Assembly: GCA_046563655.1 (NCBI GenBank)
Contig: CM102283.1
Span: forward strand, 8,928,001-8,992,000
Length of the DNA stretch: 64,000 bases
From: Yuukianura sp. NJ FZ-2021
Taxonomy: Eukaryota
Reading direction: 5' to 3'
Shown: positions 19,420-61,202 of the stretch, in pieces
How positions within the stretch are numbered: position 1 is the stretch's first letter
Layout: the number at the start of each line of letters is the position of its first letter
Position numbers and translations under genes: made by a program
Notes under the pieces: generated by a model
Told to the model about the DNA's origin: nothing
What the model saw: only the letters and a program-made list of their open reading frames with translations
The model's database searches: none

Positions 19420-21816
19420 CTAGTCGAGTGAAGGGACGTCGGTAGAGTTTGGTTGAGGTTCCATTTGAGGAGACTTGAGACTTCGAGAGGGGACGGGATG
19501 ACGAATCCTGAAGTGGAATGCCGACATCTGACGTCTGCTGCCTGCTCGAGTGTTATTGTTGTTGTCCAAGAAGGGGGAGAGAAAGCGGACGTTTCCCTTG
19601 ACCTGCTGCTTCTGGGCACAAAAGTTGATTTCTTCTGGAAAACAGGCTTTCTGGACCACCTTGACGAGTGCAAGTTGGGCCTGATCCAGTTTGTTTGAAG
19701 TGAGCGGTGCAGAGGTCGGCATCGCTGGGATTTGAGTTGAGGCGAATGTTGACCCTGGGCAAAGTGACACTGAAGTGGTCACGACTTTTCCAGCGTAGAG
19801 TTGAGGGGGTAGAACTCCTGCCTTGAGTGTTTGTGGCGAAGAGTGTTCCAGGTCCCCGTAGCATTGCAGAGATGCTTCCAAACTTTTGTCGTTTGGGTCA
19901 CAAGTGACGTGACACGAGGTGACGCTGGAAGGAGAGGTGTGATCTGGGCTTAACGGAGAAGTCCCAGTAAGGAACCAGCCAAAACGAGAGTCTTGTGCAA
20001 GTGGTGTCCCTGGCGCTCCAGTTCTGATTCCGGGCAGGAGTACTTGAGCAGTAGCTTCTGCACCGAGTAAAATGTCAATGGATGACGGAATGTTGAAGTC
20101 AGGGTCAGCCAGAGAAAGACCATCCAAGTGAGGAAATGACCCCTGACATTTGGAGCGTGGTAGGAGTCCAGTGAGGCGAGGCAAGACCAAGGCTTTCACT
20201 GGAAAAATAAAATTGTCATAGCGTGAGTGCAATTTGAAATTTACCGCACCACGAGTGGAGCCTCCAGATGAACCTCCGATTCCAGTCACACTGATGCATG
20301 ACTTCTGTCGCCTCAAGTTGAATCGGTCGACGAAAGCTTCTGAGACGAAGTTGGATTCGGAGCCGGGGTCCAGGAAGACACGACAAGGTTGACGTTCACC
20401 GTTCTGGTCAACGACTCGAGCGACGACAGTAGCCATCAGAACCACTTTGGTAGTGGGTGTCGTAGATGACGAGTGATGGGACTGGACGTGTTCGTCAGAC
20501 GAAGAGGTTGACTGCAATGCAGAGGGTGGTGACCTTGACGCTGAACTTGTTGTTGAATTTGAGTCTGAAGATGACTCAGATGATGAGCTCGAACTGCGAC
20601 GACGGACGTGAGCGTCAAAGTGGAGAAGGGTGTTGTGACGTTTTGAGCACTTGGAACACACCCCTTCACTTTTGCAGTCTCGAACTTGATGGTTTGAGCG
20701 CAAACAATTGATACAAATTTTCTTCTTGTGGGCGAAAGTAGTTCGGTCATGAGGACTCAATTTGAGAAAATCCGGACATTTGTAGATCCGGTGGGTCTGG
20801 TCATCACACTGTGGACATGCTGATTTGCCTTTGGTTTGCCCTGTAATCGTGTGATGAGCAGTGGATGATGAAGGGCTTGACTTCCGCTTTGATGACGGAG
20901 ATGATGGTGTTGGAGTGAGGGCATTGGCTCTTTTCTCCAAAAACTCCACGAACGGAGGAAGAGTAGGAAGTTCGTCGTTAGTGGTCAGTAACCACTGTCT
21001 TCTCGTCTCTGGATCAAGTTTGAGATGGGCCCAGTAGACGATGAAGATATCCCAATCGGTCACATTGACGTTGAGGATCTTGAGTGAACGGAGACATTGG
21101 TTGATTGTGTCGACCAATTTGAGAATCCCCTTGGATGTGTCTGGAACAGACTGAACAGAGAAAAGTTTAGTTAAATGAGAAAAGATGATTTCTCGTTTCT
21201 TGTTGAAACGTTTCTCAACCAATTCCCATGCTTCAGCGAAACTGAGATTGTTGAGTGGGAATGAAGAAGCGATGGACGCAGCTTCACCAGTCAGCGAGTT
21301 CTTGAGATAAACGAGCTTTTGAGCACCGGAAATTCTGGGATTATCGATGACTGCAGCCTGGAACAGATCCGAAAAGTTCTGCCATTCGGTGTAATCGCCG
21401 TTGAAAGTCGGTGGTTTGGTTTTCTCTAACTTAAACTCAGAATCAAAGTTAGAGTGATGTTGAATTCTTGGAGGATCCGGGTGATCCTCGTTTGGTTTAC
21501 GAATCGAATCACGAACAGCAAAGAGTGTGAATTGTACCTGTTCTAGCAGATCTTCACACTCGATAAGTGTATCGTCTATGTCGTCCAATGATTGGGAGGA
21601 AGTACTGGCACAGATGAGATGACGTTTCCAGTAATTGAACTCCGTTTTGATTTCACTAAGTCGAGTCTCCTTAACGGTGACTTCAGGGACAGTGGTCGGT
21701 TTCCATGTTACGGAGTCCAAAGACGTCTGGAGGCGAACGATCGTCTTCCTAACATGACCGAGTCCAGCTGTTGCAGAACTGAAGCTCACTACGTCGGAGG
21801 ATGGAGTGGAGGCCAT
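19420..21816 (-). CDS. BEL/Pao Gag-protease polyprotein fused in frame to a short pre-integrase remnant (798 aa)
   Basis: DUF1759-like PPTFNGDYTEWQNFSDLF...KLVYLKNSLTGEA; Zn knuckles CPQC..H....C, CINCL...H....C, CSKC...HNTLLH; aspartic protease FLDPGSESNFVS...IDILLGA; tail VQKACFPEEI...LSPFLD...RHP. Confidence 0.92.
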   Translation of the reverse strand: MASTPSSDVVSFSSATAGLGHVRKTIVRLQTSLDSVTWKPTTVPEVTVKETRLSEIKTEFNYWKRHLICASTSSQSLDDIDDTLIECEDLLEQVQFTLFAVRDSIRKPNEDHPDPPRIQHHSNFDSEFKLEKTKPPTFNGDYTEWQNFSDLFQAAVIDNPRISGAQKLVYLKNSLTGEAASIASSFPLNNLSFAEAWELVEKRFNKKREIIFSHLTKLFSVQSVPDTSKGILKLVDTINQCLRSLKILNVNVTDWDIFIVYWAHLKLDPETRRQWLLTTNDELPTLPPFVEFLEKRANALTPTPSSPSSKRKSSPSSSTAHHTITGQTKGKSACPQCDDQTHRIYKCPDFLKLSPHDRTTFAHKKKICINCLRSNHQVRDCKSEGVCSKCSKRHNTLLHFDAHVRRRSSSSSSESSSDSNSTTSSASRSPPSALQSTSSSDEHVQSHHSSSTTPTTKVVLMATVVARVVDQNGERQPCRVFLDPGSESNFVSEAFVDRFNLRRQKSCISVTGIGGSSGGSTRGAVNFKLHSRYDNFIFPVKALVLPRLTGLLPRSKCQGSFPHLDGLSLADPDFNIPSSIDILLGAEATAQVLLPGIRTGAPGTPLAQDSRFGWFLTGTSPLSPDHTSPSSVTSCHVTCDPNDKSLEASLQCYGDLEHSSPQTLKAGVLPPQLYAGKVVTTSVSLCPGSTFASTQIPAMPTSAPLTSNKLDQAQLALVKVVQKACFPEEINFCAQKQQVKGNVRFLSPFLDNNNNTRAGSRRQMSAFHFRIRHPVPSRSLKSPQMEPQPNSTDVPSLD

Positions 21817-21874
21817 GTCACTGATAGAGAGTCACTGATTGATTAAAGTTAATTTTAGATTTCCTGAAAAATTA

Positions 21875-30279: not shown

Positions 30280-36792
<6,513 letters not shown>

Positions 36793-37784: not shown

Positions 37785-40700
37785 TTAGAATTTAGTACAC
37801 TCAATTGATTTCCCCTTGTACTGGCACACTTTACTGTCCCCTTCAATTGGATTCTGGCAATTGGCTTCATCACAGTTGTATGCATTTCCTTTCCAGGGAC
37901 TGGACGAGAACAGACGTCTGCTGTGCCTCAAACTGGCCAATCTACAAAGTTCCAATCAACTTTAACTTTACTTCTTTATATTGTTACTTTTCCAAAAAAT
38001 TATTTCAATTAATTGATATTTACGTTTAGCTAAAATTAGTTTACCTTCTGAATGTCTTTGTCATAACGTTATCTTCGAATTGGAATGCAGTAAAGGCAAG
38101 TGATTTGCTCAATTTCCTAACTTCGTTGATTGCCGTCTTACGATGTGGTGGAAGTAACATTGTCGCTATGTGTTGCAGGACCTTGTTGGACGGAAGATTT
38201 TTGTAGAATTAGTTGATTAATCATAACTCTTGGTTAATTAAACTTACGATAAACTTTTGGAGTCTAACAAGAGCATGGATGATGTTACCGGGAGCGACTT
38301 CCCACTGACTGAAGTATCCCAGTGACGTAAAAATTAGGATAGGCACAGTATAGGGCCCTGAAATCACTCAGTTGTTAATTCCTAAGTCGATTAGTTTAGT
38401 TGATTAACCGATTAATCGCATTACCAGGGCACAGTGGATCTTCAAAGTCATACATGCCCAAGGGTGTGGCCAGCTCCGAATGAAATGCCAGGTTAAGTGC
38501 ATCGGTGTCAGGTTCAGTTGGATTATGAATTCGTTTTAGCGTTTGGTGACCGCTGATTGGTCCAGCTGATGTTGATGTGGTCGGCATCGTTCGAATCTCT
38601 CTCATAACATAACCAGCGGAGTTGATCAGTGGAATTTTAGCTCTCATGATATTGCCTTTGTCTTCATTCCAACCAGCAAATGACAACACCATGTCACTCC
38701 ATAGCCAGCCTCTCTTGGCAGCTGTAGTCAGCGGGACATAAGTTTGGTACTTTTCGTCTGCCATGATTCTAGTCACAGCAACTGCTGATCGGATAGCCAT
38801 TGACTCAAACAGTTTACGTTCCGTCACTTGTTCCAGAAAGTGTGACTGAATTAGACTTGAATTGTAGAGACATTCCATGAACTTTTGAGCTCGGCGACTG
38901 AGTCGGCCGATCTCGGAGTTCCGAAGTTGCCACAGCCACTGCAGTAGTCGATGGGTGGCAGCCGTTTCAGGCTCTTCCAGGGCCAAAGCCGTTTCAGTAT
39001 CTGGATCCATAGAGTGGACGTCAGTATGATACTTGCAGATATCCGAAGCACCGCGGAAGCTTAACTTGGACACTCTACTACTGCTCTTGGCCACGGCTGG
39101 TTTCACGGTGGACCCTTCGCTGAAACTAGCTGAAGTCCGGAGGCCCTTGAAACTGAATCCAACTGATCGCTTTCGCTTGACTTTCAAAGATTCTTGTTGC
39201 TTCCGACCAAGATGTCCTTCGGATCGCATCTGATGCAGTGCAATTCTCAGGATGTCGCCAATAATTTCCCAAGCTGGAAGTCTTTGTCTTTGAATGTCCC
39301 GTTTGGTGGTCATTGTACACTTCGACAGTACTTGAAGTATCATGGATATGGACTGGATCTGTCTTGGTGAGAAAGTGTGAGGGCAGATATGCTTGGGACG
39401 TGGGATTTCGTTGATAACTTGTGTCCAAGCTAGGATAAGTTCTCCTTGCGATCCAAGTACTCGACGACAATTGTCCAAGTGAGTTATAAGTTCTTTGTTG
39501 GACAAGTAGTTTGACGGTGATATTTCATTTAACAGCTGAAAAATTGTTGTGTAGACGGAATCTTTCGACTCGCAAGCTTCGTTGACTACACCTAAAAGTG
39601 ACAGTACTTTAGTAAATTGAAGGTAATTGATTAACTAATGAAGCTAATTTGTCTACATTTATCTTAAGTGTAACCTCTAGATGTTCCTGGACGATTAGAG
39701 TTGTCGGCAAACGCAACGGAACTGGCAAAAACGTCGTCCATCTCCATTTCTTCAACGGACGAATCCCGACATCTGATTTGTTCCCGCCTTTGCTGGTTTA
39801 CCATCCCAACAAATCCCGCAGCAATGTCAGTCATTGACCGATTAGTTTTGGTTTTGAGTGGTGACATGTCACGGTCATGGACACCCACGGTGCCCATACT
39901 TAGTCTTCTCAGGATAGTAGTCCCTATATATTTCGAAAGTGATCGTGACTGTCTCGGTAGCTCCTCCCTCGACGAACCAATTGTCGAATCCAACGTAGAC
40001 TTTCTTCGAGGCGGTCCAAATTTGTTATTTTCGTCCCTGTCAGCTACACTGAGTTCTTCAAAATGCAAACCGAATTCGTCATCTTCATCTTGATCAAGAT
40101 GAACTTGGTTTCCTGGTGGGACAGAAGCAGAACGGACAGAATCGACATGTTCCAATCCAGTGTCATCTTCATCTAGTTCTCCGAATTGCTGGCCTTGCGG
40201 TTTCCACAAATTCCGTAAAACGTTTCGTTTTGTGAAATAATCGTAGTGGAGGCCCTTGTCATATGATTGGACAGCTTCAGCCAGCAGATCGGTAAACCGG
40301 GTCGAAAACTGTTTCGGTTCCCAGTCGGTTATGTCCGGTAACTGTTCCAGTTCGTGTAAGAAACTGCTCATGACAAAGTCAATTGTCAGTGACTGTACTC
40401 CGACGTTTTGATGAAGTTCGGCTATGTCTTCTACGCCAATCAGAAAGCAGGAATTCAAATTTTCCCAGAAGTTGGTAGGGTTGAGACAAAATGTGCCGTA
40501 GAGCTTGAACACTCGTCCGACGATACTGCTCGGATGAAATCCAAAGATGATGTGAGATTCTGCCGGCCAAAACTGAATTGTCCACAGGGTTTCATAATTG
40601 GTTGGCATTAGAAAGCATCCCTGTGGAAAAAAAATCAGAATTTTAAGTTTTCAGAAATTTTGAACTTTTTTTGAAAATGTTACCCTTAGCAGAGATTCGC

Positions 40701-55720: not shown

Positions 55721-56025
55721 GTTTCAAAATTTTAAGTTTAAATTGAATTTTGATAAATTGAAATTTTGGAAATTGTGGATGATGAGAATGAAAATTTGAA
55801 TTGTTACATTTAAATTGTACAACGAATTTTAAAAACTTTATTTTTCCAAACCACGATGAAGCGAAGACATCCGTTTCCAACAATCAAACAAATCAACAAA
55901 AAAAAATGAAACGAGATAAAATTAAAAGTATCCTACAGCAACAGTGATTTTTTTTTTGTAAAATTTGAGCTTCTTTTAGCTTTTGCGCAGCTTTGGTACA
56001 GGATACTAACGTATCATAACCTAGC

Positions 56026-56414
56026 CTATCCTTGACCAACCGTGCCACTCGGTATACAGTTTCGTCCGTTGCCATCACACTTGACTTCTGCTTCGATTGT
56101 CACGCATGCGCCCAGAATCAGCTTCTCTTTGCATGGATAACACTTGCACCGCCATTGATACTTCCAGCTATGCCAGCGTTTCTCACATTTCCCTTGGTTA
56201 CCGTTGCCACCCGCAGCACATTGCCTTTTACACTCGTCTGGATTTCCTGGACATCCCATGTGCGCTAAATTCAAAAATTTGTTACTTCAAAAAAGAATTT
56301 TTCTAGAAAGTGGTATAAAATTTTGAAATAATTCTATACTAACTTACCAGAAACGACGCTAAGTAAAAGGAGAGATGAGAGAATCACTAAAATGAAAAAC
56401 TGTTGGCTGTTCAT
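56026..56414 (-). CDS. Secreted 10-Cys defensin-like peptide, copy A (exons 56414-56348, 56264-56026)
   Basis: MNSQQFFILVILSSLLLLSVVS-AHMGCPGNPDECKRQC...GKCEKRWHSWKYQWRCKCYPC...CV...CDGNGRNC. Confidence 0.9.
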
Positions 56415-57049
56415 GACGATTTCAAAAAAGCTTCCACTTTGGAATTTGAAATTTTTAAAAATCTTGAATGTTTTTGATCAAATGGAATTAAACGTCGCGC
56501 TGCTTTTATAGCGACTGGGTGTTTACTTTTTTAATCATTCCAGCGTCCAGCGTCAGCTACAGTTATCTTTTTCAGAAATACTAAATTTTTCCTGATTTCA
56601 TTTAGTTTTAAGTTATCTTTTGTAGTGAATTGTTTCATCATTTTATTTTTTAGGAAATTTGACGAATTTCGAAGAAGTGTTTGATTTTCTAATTACTAAT
56701 TTTTGATTGTTCCAAGCTTCTACTGTCGGATCACGGAAAAAGGAGGTTATCGTTTTAGGGATTAAAATTTTTATCTCCTTGCTTCCTTCCTAACTATAAT
56801 TTTTTTTTTTGCAGAAGCGATATTTTGGTTTGCAAAAGTAAACACAACTAAAGATAAATTATAAAATATTATTATAGTTATTTATTATTATTATAATTAT
56901 TGCAATTTTAAAATTTTTAAAACTTTATTTTTCAAAACCACGAAAGTCCCGCAAAGTCCGTTTCCAACAATCAAACAAAATCAACAAAAAATTCGAAGTA
57001 ACGTTTAAAGTGACCTAAAGTAGTTTTCTTGTAAAATTTTAGCCCCTTT

Positions 57050-57410
57050 TTAGCCAGTGGGTTTACAGTTTTGTCCGTTGCCATCACAGGTGACTCCTAC
57101 TTCGATTTTGTCCACGCATGCGCCCAGAATCAGCTTCCCTTTGCATGGATTACACTTGCAGCGTGATTGGTACCTCCAGCGATACCAGCGTTTCTCACAC
57201 TTCCCTTCGTTCCCGCTGCCACCACAGTGCCTTTTACACTCATCTGGATTTCCTGGACAGCCCTTGTCCGCTAAATTCAAAAATTTCAACTTCAAAAAAT
57301 TATTTTAATAGGTACATTTCAAAATAGTTTTATTCTAACTCACCAGAAACGACGCTAAGTAAAAGTAGAGATGAGAGGATCACTAAAATGAAAAACTGTT
57401 GACTGTTCAT
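57050..57410 (-). CDS. Secreted 10-Cys defensin-like peptide, copy B (exons 57410-57344, 57270-57050)
   Basis: 67-nt signal exon, then ADKGCPGNPDECKRHC...GKCEKRWYRWRYQSRCKCNPC...CDGNGQNCKPTG. Confidence 0.9.
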
Positions 57411-58142
57411 GACGATTTTTAGTGTGAACTTTTAAATTTTTCGTTTTGTGAATGTTTTTGATAAAATGGAATTAAACGTGCTGCTTTTATAGCGATTTGT
57501 GCTTCACTTTATAATTTTTCCACCGTCTAGCGTCAGCTACTTTTATCTTTCCCAGAAATATTAAACTTTATTTGAATTCATTTAGTTTTAAGTTATGTTT
57601 AGTAATGAATTTTCCATGTGTCTGGTGATTCATGCCATGAAATATTAATTGTTACCAGGAATTACAGCTATTCTTGTATACACAGCGTCTGTTAGCTTTG
57701 TCTTTTTTCCTAGAAGCGAAGAAGCGTAGGGTGCAAGGGAGGAAAGAGCTTTGAAATCTCTGATTTTAAAATTATCATTTAACCATTGTGTAATAACCTA
57801 ATCAAATGCAACAGGCATCAGTTTCCCAGAATAACACATGCATAATAACTATTATGCATTTGACATTATTGCTTGTTGACAAAATTATTTTCTAAACATT
57901 TTACGTAGCAACGATATAAGGCCCTTCTTCAGCCAAATCCCTCAATTTATTATTACATTTATTTGTGTTGCAAAACTAAACAAATTGCAAAAGTTCCACA
58001 AAACAGCAAAGCATTCAAGCGAAGTAAAATCATGATGTCCCAAAGCAACCGAAATTTTATTGTAAAATTTTACCCGCCAAGGATATTATGTCGTCTATTT
58101 TTACAACTCCTTTCTGTTAAAAGAAAATTAACAAGGATTCAT

Positions 58143-58537
58143 TTAAGCATATCCTATTCCAACAGTGGGTTGACAATTTTGTCCGTTGCCATCACATCCT
58201 CCTCCTACTTGGAAGCTGGTCACGCATGCGCCTAAAATCAATGTCCCGCCGTTGCATGGATTGCATTTGCACCGCCATTGATACTTCCAGCGATACCAGC
58301 GTCTCTCACACTTCCCTTCGTTCCCTCCCGTACCACAGTATTGCCTACACTCCTGTGGATTTCCTGGACATCCTCTGTCCGCTAATTTAAAAAAAAATGG
58401 CGTCAAAAAAGCCGTTTTTAAAGAAAAAAAAAAGTAAGAAATTGAAGAATAATTTCGTTTAATCACTAACCAGAAACGACGCTGAGAAAAAGTAAAGAAG
58501 ATAGGATAACAAAAATGAAAAACTGCTGGTTGTTCAT
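58143..58537 (-). CDS. Secreted 10-Cys defensin-like peptide, copy C (exons 58537-58471, 58381-58143)
   Basis: 67-nt signal exon, then ADRGCPGNPQECRQYC...GKCERRWYRWKYQWRCKCNPC...CDGNGQNCQPTVGIGYA. Confidence 0.9.
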
Positions 58538-59154
58538 AATGCTTTATAACGGAAATTTTTTGAAACCTGAAATTTTGGATTTTTTGTGTGAGTGATTTAT
58601 TGACTGAACGTGATTTCTTCTTTTATATCGCTTTCTATGCTTTTCTCTTACAAATTTCTTCGTCTTCAACTTTTATCAAGCTTGCAGTAATGCTAAACTT
58701 TTCTGTTTTTAGTTACTTCTGAGCTATGTTTCGCAATAGATTTTGCATGAGTCTCTGCTAATTTTGATACGGAATATCATTGTACCGGGAATTAATGTTA
58801 TTTCGTACGAACATGTTCTTGGAACATGTCGACAAACGCTGCAGCGTTCGTTCACCTTATCTTGTTCTTTTCTAGAACCGTTGATTACTTCATTTTTCAC
58901 ACGGAGAAGGGATGTAGTTTCGAAATTTTTTTCGTCAAAAGAAACGAATCTTCAACTGATTGTGACTTCAATTTATACCGATTTTTTTGGGCACTTATCT
59001 TATTTTTGAAAAGATATTTGTAGAGTTTTACAATTTTAAATTCTTTTCGTACCAACCGTTTTTTTTTATTATAGAATTTTAGCCTCCAGCTAACAGTGCT
59101 ACAGCGCCCATTTATTAAACTAATGTTTTTCTGTTACAGAAACTAAAAATTGCT

Positions 59155-59542
59155 TTAGTCAATGTCGCCTCCAACAGTGGGTCTGCAGTTTCGTCCGTCC
59201 ACATCGCACGCGACTCCGGCTCGGACGTTGTCAACGCATAAGCCCAAAATCAGTACGCCGTTGCATGGATTACATTTGCACCGTGATTCGTAGCTCCAGC
59301 TATACCAGCGATCCTCACACCTCCCTTCTTTTCCTCCTAAGGCACAGTATTGCCTACACACTTCTGGATTGTCTGGACATCCCTTGTCCTCTAATTTCAA
59401 AAAAAATTACTTAAAAAAGAATTTTTAAAGAAAAAGAATACAAAATTGAAAAATAATTTTGTTTTAGTCACGAACCAGAAACGACGCTGAGAAAAAGTAG
59501 AGAAGACAGGATAACAAAAATGAAAAACGGCTGGTTGGTCAT
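59155..59542 (-). CDS. Secreted 10-Cys defensin-like peptide, copy D (exons 59542-59476, 59390-59155)
   Basis: 67-nt signal exon, then EDKGCPDNPEVCRQYC...GRCEDRWYSWSYESRCKCNPC...CDVDGRNCRPTVGGDID. Confidence 0.9.
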
Positions 59543-60358
59543 AATGTTATAAAAGCAGTTTTTTGAAAACTGAAATTTTTGGTTTTTTGAATCTTTGATT
59601 TGTCAATTAACTCTGTGCTTGCTCTTTTATAACGCTTTGTGCTTTAATTTTTTTTAATTTCTACAGCGTTGGTAACTTTTATCAACCTTCAAATTGCTTA
59701 AGTTTTCTGTATTTTAGGTACTTTTTAGGCACTTTTAGGTACTTTCGCAATAGATTTTCTTGTGTCTTTGCTGATTTTTTTGACAGAATATCTTTGTAAG
59801 GGGAATTAATATCATTTTGTAAAAATAGCGTCTGTTAATTTATCTTGTTTTGCACTGAACCGAGGATTACTTCATTTTGAGTGCGGCGAAGGGGCGCAGT
59901 TTCGCAATCTTTTTGGTGAAACGGAAGATTTTTCAATTAGGATTTCAATTTATATTAGTCTGATTCATAGTCATTGTATTTTACTTATTATTATTATTAT
60001 TTATTTTCTTATATTTTTATACACTTTGTGTTGTTGCTTTCAACACTTTTTTTTTATAAATAGTTAAAAAAAAACATTCTCTCAACTTCATATAATTTCA
60101 AAACATTTTTTATTTAGTAAATTATTCAGAGTAGGGAAACTCTTGCCAGTAAATTGGTGTAATCCTATTAAAATTATGAGAATTGGGAATTAATTAATTT
60201 TTTTAACAGAGTTATTTTAAATATTTTTGAAATTGAATTTGGAACAAATCCAGGAGAACTGCTGGTTACTATCAACACAGTAGAACATACACTAGCCTCC
60301 AGCCAAGGGTTTGCAATTGTTACCAGTGCATTTTATTCAAATCTTGAATTGTCACTTC

Positions 60359-60689
60359 TTAGCCCCTGGGGCCCCTGCTGCCCCTACTGCATTTGCCAAA
60401 CGATTCTATTCCTCCAGATCCTCCAGGTTTGCATTCACACTTACAAATTGAAATGCCGCCGGGTATTACCACGCACCTCCCACTTCTTCCAATACGAGAG
60501 CAGTATTTGTCACACTTTTTATTCAGATGAGAACATAGTCCTACGCCCGAGTCAGCTAGATTTAAAAAAAATTAATGCCGTTTTAGAGTTTTTTGAAACA
60601 CGCGTTTGTAAGTATCACTTACCAGAGATGGCGGTGATCAAAAGCAGAGAAAACAAGAATAGAATTGCCAAAAACTGTTGGTTGTTCAT
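60359..60689 (-). CDS. Divergent 8-Cys member of the peptide array, copy E (exons 60689-60623, 60555-60359)
   Basis: MNNQQFLAILFLFSLLLITAIS-ADSGVGLCSHLNKKCDKYCSRIGRSGRCVVIPGGISICKCECKPGGSGGIESFGKCSRGSRGPRG*, translated by hand; exon 2 is absent from the ORF track. Confidence 0.82.
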
Positions 60690-61202
60690 GATTTTGGAAC
60701 AAAAACTTTGGGTGTAAGTTGAAGAGGTTTCTACGCTTCCCTTGACGTTTCGAAAAAATGAAAAACTCGGTGGTAGGAATGACATTTCAATTGATAGCGA
60801 TTTCAATTTATATCAATCTTTATCTTTATTTGATTTTTTAGGAAGCCTGGCGAATTTTGAAGTATTGTTTGGTTTTCTAATTAATAATGTTTCATTTTTC
60901 CGCTCATCCGCTGACGCATGAAATTAGGTTAACGTACCCTATGTTAGCAAAAAAAATTTGCTAATTTTTGTCCTCTTCCTTGAAATGATAACTATGTTTA
61001 TTTATGTGCATCTAGAAATGAATTAGCTAGAAAATTAATTGAATTTGATGTCTTCAAGATTCCCATCGCAACGTCCCAACACACCAAAATTTACGAAACT
61101 ATGAAACTCGTTTTTTCTGAATCTGGAATTCAGTCGATACATTTCCGGTTTTATAAAAAACCGAATAATAGTTCCTTTTTCAGCATTTTTTGAAAACGAA
61201 AA

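Follow-up and report, generated by a model that had tools for sequence, protein, structure and literature searches.

We analyzed a 64,000-nucleotide stretch of the Yuukianura sp. NJ FZ-2021 genome (GCA_046563655.1, contig CM102283.1, positions 8,928,001 to 8,992,000 of the forward strand), hereafter called the window, in which a tandem array of five small genes, A to E, encodes cysteine-rich peptides that probably serve in host defense. The array occupies positions 56026..60689 on the minus strand, where the genes stand head to tail in the same orientation with two exons each. A script that screened for gene models with a start ATG, an open first exon of 67 nt, GT and AG at the splice donor and acceptor and a Cys-rich reading frame beyond them returned exactly five, and a tblastn search for a sixth copy across the 64-kb window found none. 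Exon 1, which encodes the predicted signal peptide, was exactly 67 nt long in all five genes, placing every intron in phase 1, and all five introns showed GT...AG borders. The ATG-to-ATG distances along the array were 996, 1127, 1005 and 1147 nt, and the precursors of A to E measured 101, 95, 101, 100 and 87 amino acids, respectively.

Gene A consists of exon 1 at 56348..56414 (ATG at 56414), an 83-nt intron with a G+C content of 19% at 56265..56347 and exon 2 at 56026..56264, which, like the other second exons given here, includes the stop codon; it encodes a 10-Cys peptide with an isoelectric point (pI) of 8.7. Gene B (exon 1 at 57344..57410, ATG at 57410; 73-nt intron at 57271..57343; exon 2 at 57050..57270) encodes a 10-Cys peptide of pI 8.9 with a C-terminal Gly and a His before the third Cys. 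The peptide of gene C (exon 1 at 58471..58537, ATG at 58537; 89-nt intron at 58382..58470; exon 2 at 58143..58381) also contains 10 Cys and has a pI of 8.6. Gene D (exon 1 at 59476..59542, ATG at 59542; 85-nt intron at 59391..59475; exon 2 at 59155..59390) encodes an anionic 10-Cys peptide, and gene E (exon 1 at 60623..60689, ATG at 60689; 67-nt intron at 60556..60622; exon 2 at 60359..60555) an 8-Cys peptide of pI 9.4 with a Gly-rich tail. Copies A to D share the frame C-x6-C-x3-C-x8(10 in A)-C-x12-C-x-C-x2-C-x8(9 in C)-C-x9(8 in A)-C-x6-C, and the aromatic and basic hairpin motif RWYRWRY occurs literally in copy B. The gene models confirmed the preliminary description of this locus, which had read five co-oriented genes with a 67-nt signal exon, a phase-1 intron and a mature-peptide exon, and the 10-Cys spacing that it gave for A to D was reproduced in the exon-2 translations and in their alignment.

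The second exons had a G+C content of 49-52%, compared with 16-28% in the introns. Pairwise ratios of nonsynonymous to synonymous divergence (dN/dS) in the mature part of A to D were 0.27-0.44 at dS values of 0.30-0.89, indicating purifying selection, and all 10 Cys were retained in the four copies. Because the exon/intron contrast and the low dN/dS coincide with recurrence of the same Cys frame in proteins of other organisms, we regard A to E as coding beyond chance. Given this selection on the mature region, together with a candidate TATA box and a GATA site in front of each copy, the genes look functional. The sequencing runs listed for the window comprised five DNA runs from two studies and no RNA run. 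DNA contigs from four of these runs, with both studies represented, span the array, covering 30 of 30 bins in three runs (X1-X3) and 28 of 30 in the fourth (X4). Within 55800-60900, some contigs from public runs skip about one unit (1023-1133 nt), which reflects either copy-number variants of the array or collapsed repeats in short-read assemblies.

Among A to D, nucleotide identity was 82-96% in exon 1, 69-79% in exon 2, 56-80% in the introns and 60-72% in the 300 nt upstream. Secreted effector families typically combine a conserved signal peptide with a variable mature part. The contrast was marked between C and D, in which the signal part had a dS of 0.14 (94% identity) and the mature part a dS of 0.71 (73%); A and B showed a milder form of the same pattern. 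The likeness of the C and D signal exons could stem from gene conversion of the 5' part or from a separate constraint acting there.

Copy E, with its eight Cys, carries a tail that differs from that of A to D. Its exon 1 showed 66-70% ungapped nucleotide identity to those of A to D, whereas 20,000 random 67-mers reached at most 48%. This identity, the shared gene structure and the place of E in the array argue that E is a paralog of the other four copies. Directly after the E stop codon, three-frame translation and DNA alignment revealed an out-of-frame stretch (60297..60335, minus strand) that reads C-x5-C-K-P...G-G-stop, as the C-terminus of A to D does, with a tblastn E-value of only 4.1. 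This possible relic hints that E may have arisen from a 10-Cys copy by a frame change. Copy E also matched snakin/GASA-like proteins (E 0.78-5.3; Pfam GASA, E 0.19), and we took these matches as noise from Cys composition.

The regions upstream of the genes share two short motifs. The octamer TATAAAAG lies on the gene strand 96 nt 5' of the ATG of A (56503..56510), 81 nt 5' of that of B (57484..57491), 90 nt 5' of that of C (58620..58627) and 89 nt 5' of that of D (59624..59631); these are four of its seven occurrences in the whole window, and the boxes would act as TATA boxes. Copy E has a TATA-like box (consensus TATAWAW; TATAAAT) 123 nt 5' of its ATG (60806..60812). In addition, the GATA-factor consensus WGATAR is present on the gene strand of all five copies between -136 and -154, against a background of 1.28 per kb on both strands: at -154 in A (56563..56568), -138 in B (57543-57548), -141 in C (58673-58678), -142 in D (59679-59684) and -136 in E (60820-60825). 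These are putative binding sites; GATA sites are typical of insect immune-gene promoters that are active in fat body and gut.

The family is rare. A word-seeded protein search with copy C found one match, an uncharacterized protein of the springtail Folsomia candida that has 100 residues and the same frame. When 1.84 billion representatives were scanned in full by HMMER, a five-sequence profile retrieved three proteins. Extending the profile search to 5.8 billion proteins yielded seven relatives, all uncharacterized: one from F. candida, one from the sciarid fungus gnat Bradysia odoriphaga, two from a second sciarid, Pseudolycoriella hygida, one from a JGI record and two from Logan records. 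The B. odoriphaga gene lies on a 362-kb contig. The P. hygida genes are carried on scaffolds of 155.8 and 64.5 Mb and are therefore not contaminants. Using the single protein P0130 as the query, we found three further loci (L001-L003) in one metagenome. Both L001 and L003 have a signal exon (58 and 70 nt, respectively) followed by a phase-1 intron of 72-76 nt that ends at a common point, just before D-K/R-G-C-P, and all three loci share only the peptide exon with the window. L002 (909-1133), which shares its metagenome with the 10-Cys locus L001, represents an 8-Cys subtype with an acidic tail, to which P0009, one of the Logan records, also belongs.

We then compared the peptides with known folds. 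The six-Cys frame of the cysteine-stabilized alpha/beta (CSab) fold, C...CxxxC...C...CxC, is present in A to E. In an alignment of 14 family members its first five Cys are invariant and the sixth is nearly so, as L003 ends before it; the n-loop spans six residues. Copy C alone, searched against the PDB sequences, aligned with the oyster defensin Cg-Def over the stretch between the G-C-P-G-N start and C-x-C-x-x-C-N-G at an E-value of 0.84. A profile built from the 14 members found nine PDB sequences, seven of which are CSab defensins or scorpion peptides: eurocin (E 0.018), LaIT2 (0.023), Cg-Def (0.024), micasin (0.19), beta-KTx 14.3 (0.22), an arthropod defensin (0.68) and BmKDfsin3 (1.2). In these alignments the family shares the G-C-P start and the cysteines of CxxxC and CxC with the CSab peptides.

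Structure models of low confidence pointed in the same direction. AlphaFold models of copy C (built with 5 sequences) and copy B (with 14 sequences) both predicted a helix at residues 8-16 and strands at 21/22-29 and 32-39/40, with a local predicted confidence (pLDDT) of 70-77. Eurocin, micasin and Cg-Def held the top ranks in Foldseek. A second aligner gave Z scores of 3.4 for eurocin (root-mean-square deviation 2.1, 38 aligned residues, 34% identity), 3.2 for Cg-Def, 2.7 for a plectasin variant and 2.6 for MGD-1, and all 14 of the 84 aligned chains that had Z≥2 were CSab. In a search independent of Foldseek, 9 of 48,161 chains reached Z≥2, eight of which were CSab (plant defensins, drosomycin, eurocin and Dg3b). 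All fold matches were confined to the region from residue 1 to about residues 41-54. These results are consistent with one another and none is significant singly; residues 1 to approximately 42 are best read as a CSab defensin of the ancient invertebrate type, a class name used in the literature (PMC5116183, PMC8877149).

The core is followed by an extension of approximately 30 residues with three Cys. The C-terminal parts of four copies matched no Pfam family, and our searches detected no relative of the extension. A single-sequence PDB match of the extension to meteorin (E 0.2) was treated as chance. None of the 14 members has a Cys in the post-helix loop, which lies between their third and fourth Cys; hence the seventh Cys would have to pair with a Cys of the extension. 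In the 8-Cys relatives P0009 and L002, Cys7 and Cys8 are kept, whereas Cys9 and Cys10 are both gone and an acidic tail stands in their place. This joint loss suggests the disulfide pairs 7-8 and 9-10 in the 10-Cys form, which we infer from the sequences. The missing loop cysteine and the C-terminal extension are what is new in the family.

The closest described peptides are the fungal defensins eurocin (2lt8), micasin (2lr5) and plectasin, which likewise have a G-C-P start, a short n-loop, a CxxxC helix and a hairpin closing in CxC; eurocin even carries the aromatic W-Y pair of the array hairpin. They gave the best matches by profile and fold (E 0.018-0.19; Z 2.7-3.4, all marginal), but they have 6 Cys in about 40 residues and lack the CxxC continuation and the C-terminal extension. 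Moreover, position 2 is Phe in these peptides and basic or otherwise non-aromatic in the array, and among the array copies only B has His before Cys3. The mollusc defensins Cg-Def (oyster, 2b68) and MGD-1 (mussel, 1fjn) show a nearly identical G-C-P-G-N start and a CxCxxC end followed by G, with 38% identity over 37-42 residues. However, the fourth disulfide of the mollusc 8-Cys defensins uses a post-helix loop Cys that the 14 members lack and that Cg-Def displays in its PDB alignments with the family, and the mollusc peptides have no extension.

Other CSab peptides differ in how their additional cysteines are placed. The nematode peptide ASABF (2d56) resembles the array peptides in its CSab core, its 8 Cys and its CxCxxC-type end, but it ranked low in Foldseek (rank 43, E 7.3) and pairs the loop Cys, missing here, with its last Cys (C5-C10 of the reference array; PMC5116183). 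The macins (theromacin with 10 Cys, hydramacin) are also CSab-containing peptides with up to 10 Cys in approximately 75 residues. They add a C1-C7 bond, and theromacin a C5-C10 bond (PMC5116183), with extra Cys before and inside the core, whereas all extra Cys of the array family follow the core; no macin was among the fold matches listed. Long-chain scorpion toxins and scorpine-like peptides combine a CSab core with added Cys-bearing sequence and gave weak fold and profile matches. In the long-chain toxins, one extra bond ties the long C-terminal tail to the N-terminus (PMC5116183); by contrast, the extension of the array family has three Cys and apparently forms a separate two-loop module.

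Taken together, we favor the reading that the array is a small, lineage-restricted family of secreted host-defense peptides, namely, extended defensins, and we consider this reading probable rather than firmly established. The sequence analysis shows the gene structure, the Cys frame, purifying selection and how few relatives there are and what they are, whereas the fold, the disulfide pairing, secretion, expression and the target are inferred. Transcription would probably start from a TATA-box promoter with a GATA site approximately 50 nt upstream of the box. After splicing of the short phase-1 intron and removal of a signal peptide of approximately 22-23 residues, a peptide of approximately 72-79 residues would remain. 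Its first ~42 residues would form the CSab domain, with the helix at 8-16 and the hairpin at 22-39, and its last ~30 residues the additional module. We propose that it has five disulfides, of which Cys1-4, 2-5 and 3-6 would be the canonical CSab bonds, Cys7-Cys8 would link the CxCxxC end with the extension and Cys9-Cys10 would close a local loop. Several copies end in Gly, and C-terminal amidation is possible; the hairpin, which is rich in Trp, Tyr, Arg and Lys, would aid membrane docking. Tandem duplication would have given rise to the cationic copies A, B and C, the anionic D and the rebuilt 8-Cys E.

Several results weigh against the extended-defensin reading. None of the 14 members, and none of A to E, reached the Pfam gathering cut-off of any family, arthropod defensin included; the best Pfam matches, each from one member, were DUF7336 (E 0.014) and Toxin_6 (E 0.041, copy B only; 14.8 bits against a cut-off of 25). 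Overall pLDDT was 63-65 and fell to 47-56 in the extension. None of the 86 Foldseek matches had E≤0.001, and the top similarity values are marginal (PDB profile E 0.018; Z 3.4). The mature part of E did not match the family profile significantly (hhalign probability 1.3%). With pI values of 8.6-9.4, copies A, B, C and E are cationic, whereas the pI of copy D is only 5.0; defensins are not usually anionic, and D could have another target or act as a partner. No kappa-B consensus was found within 450 nt upstream of any copy. Finally, only part of the lipid II motif discussed below is present: the residue at position 2 is K, R, M or E, never Phe, and the His is replaced by Q in A and by Y in C and D.

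These results also bear on what the preliminary description had proposed. Its view of secreted peptides with a CSab-type core, an aromatic and basic hairpin and a Cys-bearing C-terminal extension, without an obvious acidic pro-peptide, is supported. It had found no match for the frame; this still applies at full length, where our searches returned neither a described family nor a named relative, but the core has matches in eurocin, Cg-Def, micasin, plectasin and MGD-1. Likewise, the candidate new antimicrobial or toxin family keeps its novelty in the missing loop Cys and the extension, although it sits inside the known CSab superfamily and the toxin option gained no positive support. Of the checks it had suggested, the HMMER search of the mature peptides against Pfam left no family above cut-off, and structure prediction returned top matches that were nearly all CSab, but from low-confidence models and with weak scores.

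With regard to function, a secreted antimicrobial effector in the broad sense seems somewhat better founded than not, and within it the single most likely mechanism is lipid II binding, which by analogy we hold only tentatively, with the balance tilted against it. Plectasin kills Gram-positive bacteria and binds lipid II through its N-terminus, Phe2, Gly3, Cys4, His18 and Cys37 (PMC10771296, PMC8877149). As judged from the eurocin, micasin and Cg-Def alignments, the residues equivalent to plectasin Gly3 and Cys4, a Gly and the first Cys, are invariant in all 14 members. The His before the third Cys occurs in B, P0130, P0008, L001 and L003, at the same place as in eurocin, micasin and Cg-Def.

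We weighed three other readings of the peptides. The same secreted fold might be mainly antifungal or generally membrane-active, with no binding of lipid II. Such a role would fit a life spent among fungi and feeding on them, and every named relative belongs to a springtail or a sciarid fungus gnat. Trp/Tyr and Arg/Lys abound in the hairpin, copies A, C and D lack part of the lipid II motif, and in the Foldseek-independent search plant defensins and drosomycin, which are antifungal CSab peptides, scored Z 2.0-2.9 compared with 2.2 for eurocin. However, the closest matches by profile and by the second aligner (eurocin, Cg-Def, plectasin and MGD-1) are antibacterial, and in drosomycin and plant defensins the additional disulfide connects both ends of the peptide (PMC5116183), a pattern not seen here. 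We judge a mainly antifungal or membrane-active role rather improbable.

A toxin-like or signaling role, in which the peptides would target ion channels or receptors, be it in other animals or in their producer, and not microbes, appears very unlikely. CSab is also the fold of scorpion toxins, some of which, the long-chain ones, bear a Cys-containing C-terminal extension (PMC5116183), and weak matches were obtained to Toxin_6 (copy B only), LaIT2 and beta-KTx at the E-values given above. In the Atlas, copy B had no usable match and copy E matched scorpion Toxin_3 clusters at a score of 0.86, below the lead level of 0.9. All such matches are nevertheless below threshold and reflect the shared scaffold only, and the best full-domain matches are defensins. 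Springtails and sciarids are not known to be venomous. It is just as hard to believe that expression is lacking in some or all copies, which would then be decaying duplicates or, in the case of E, a pseudogene. Copy E does lack the shared C-terminus and has kept an apparent out-of-frame relic, but the five open frames, intact GT-AG introns, even Cys numbers and TATA and GATA motifs argue otherwise, as does a dN/dS below 0.45 at dS up to 0.89 for A to D. Furthermore, the Folsomia and sciarid homologs were called as genes by others.

The distribution of the extended defensins raises the question of their origin. Copy B shared 71-75% identity with the sciarid peptides, 62-74% with its own neighbors in the array and 56% with the Folsomia peptide. 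In contrast, an ABC-C (MRP-type) transporter exon in the window (35518-36351, plus strand) had its highest identities to Orchesella (66%), Allacma (63%) and Folsomia (62-63%), with no dipteran among its best 120 matches. As far as one multi-copy gene can tell, the window probably stems from a springtail. A gene tree of 13 rows, from which the 36-residue fragment L003 was left out, had a single supported split, the 8-Cys tail subtype of P0009 and L002 (96/98); the sciarids, window copies and Folsomia formed an unresolved comb that neither supports nor rejects a transfer. The patchy range and the unexpectedly high identity would fit either horizontal transfer or strong constraint accompanied by numerous losses and overlooked annotations.

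A gene transfer between springtails and sciarids is thus possible. This reading draws on the named carriers, which among the 5.8 billion proteins are only F. candida and two sciarids, on the large scaffolds that carry the P. hygida genes, on the identity between the sciarid peptides and copy B, on the transporter exon without dipterans and on a precedent, as terpene synthases and P450s of Sciaridae have been proposed to derive from springtails or mites by transfer (PMC11665903). A transfer of antimicrobial peptides among insects has also been argued for Drosomycin (bioRxiv 10.64898/2026.03.03.709459). The fuller scenario, in which springtails invented the extended defensin, the gene moved horizontally between soil microarthropods and a sciarid ancestor in either direction, and the two-disulfide C-terminal addition to the CSab core altered binding, strikes us as doubtful. 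If true, it would be an animal-to-animal transfer of an immune effector gene, and the springtail and sciarid distribution adds a candidate to the short list of proposed gene transfers among soil arthropods.

In a homology-based survey of five springtail species, which reported defensins (three 6-Cys genes) in Sminthurus viridis only, undiscovered antimicrobial peptides were suspected (PMC10051947). The array family would be such a hidden springtail defensin set, one that escapes Pfam through its divergence, has multiplied by tandem duplication and varies in charge. It would also offer a natural experiment on the effect of a disulfide-locked C-terminal module on a plectasin-like scaffold, which is itself of interest for drug development. 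Literature searches on defensins of springtails, Folsomia and sciarids, on antimicrobial peptides of F. candida, and on BhSGAMP and P. hygida returned no description of the family, and a search for the accessions and locus names of its relatives matched no paper. None of the relatives bears the name of BhSGAMP-1, the salivary-gland peptide of Bradysia hygida, and in UniRef100 each of the two P. hygida relatives is the sole member of its entry; BhSGAMP-1 probably represents a different family.

Two other regions of the window, both on the minus strand, contain long open frames. An 803-codon frame at 19420-21831 matched DUF1759 (E 2e-30) and, weakly, an aspartyl protease, and it resembles the gag-protease part of a BEL/Pao-type retrotransposon. 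At 38396-40650, two adjacent open frames of 412 and 328 codons were found, the second of which weakly resembles the Mab-21 HhH/H2TH-like domain (E 7e-5; 23.4 bits against a Pfam cut-off of 24.1), and this region may hold a cGAS-like or Mab-21 family gene.

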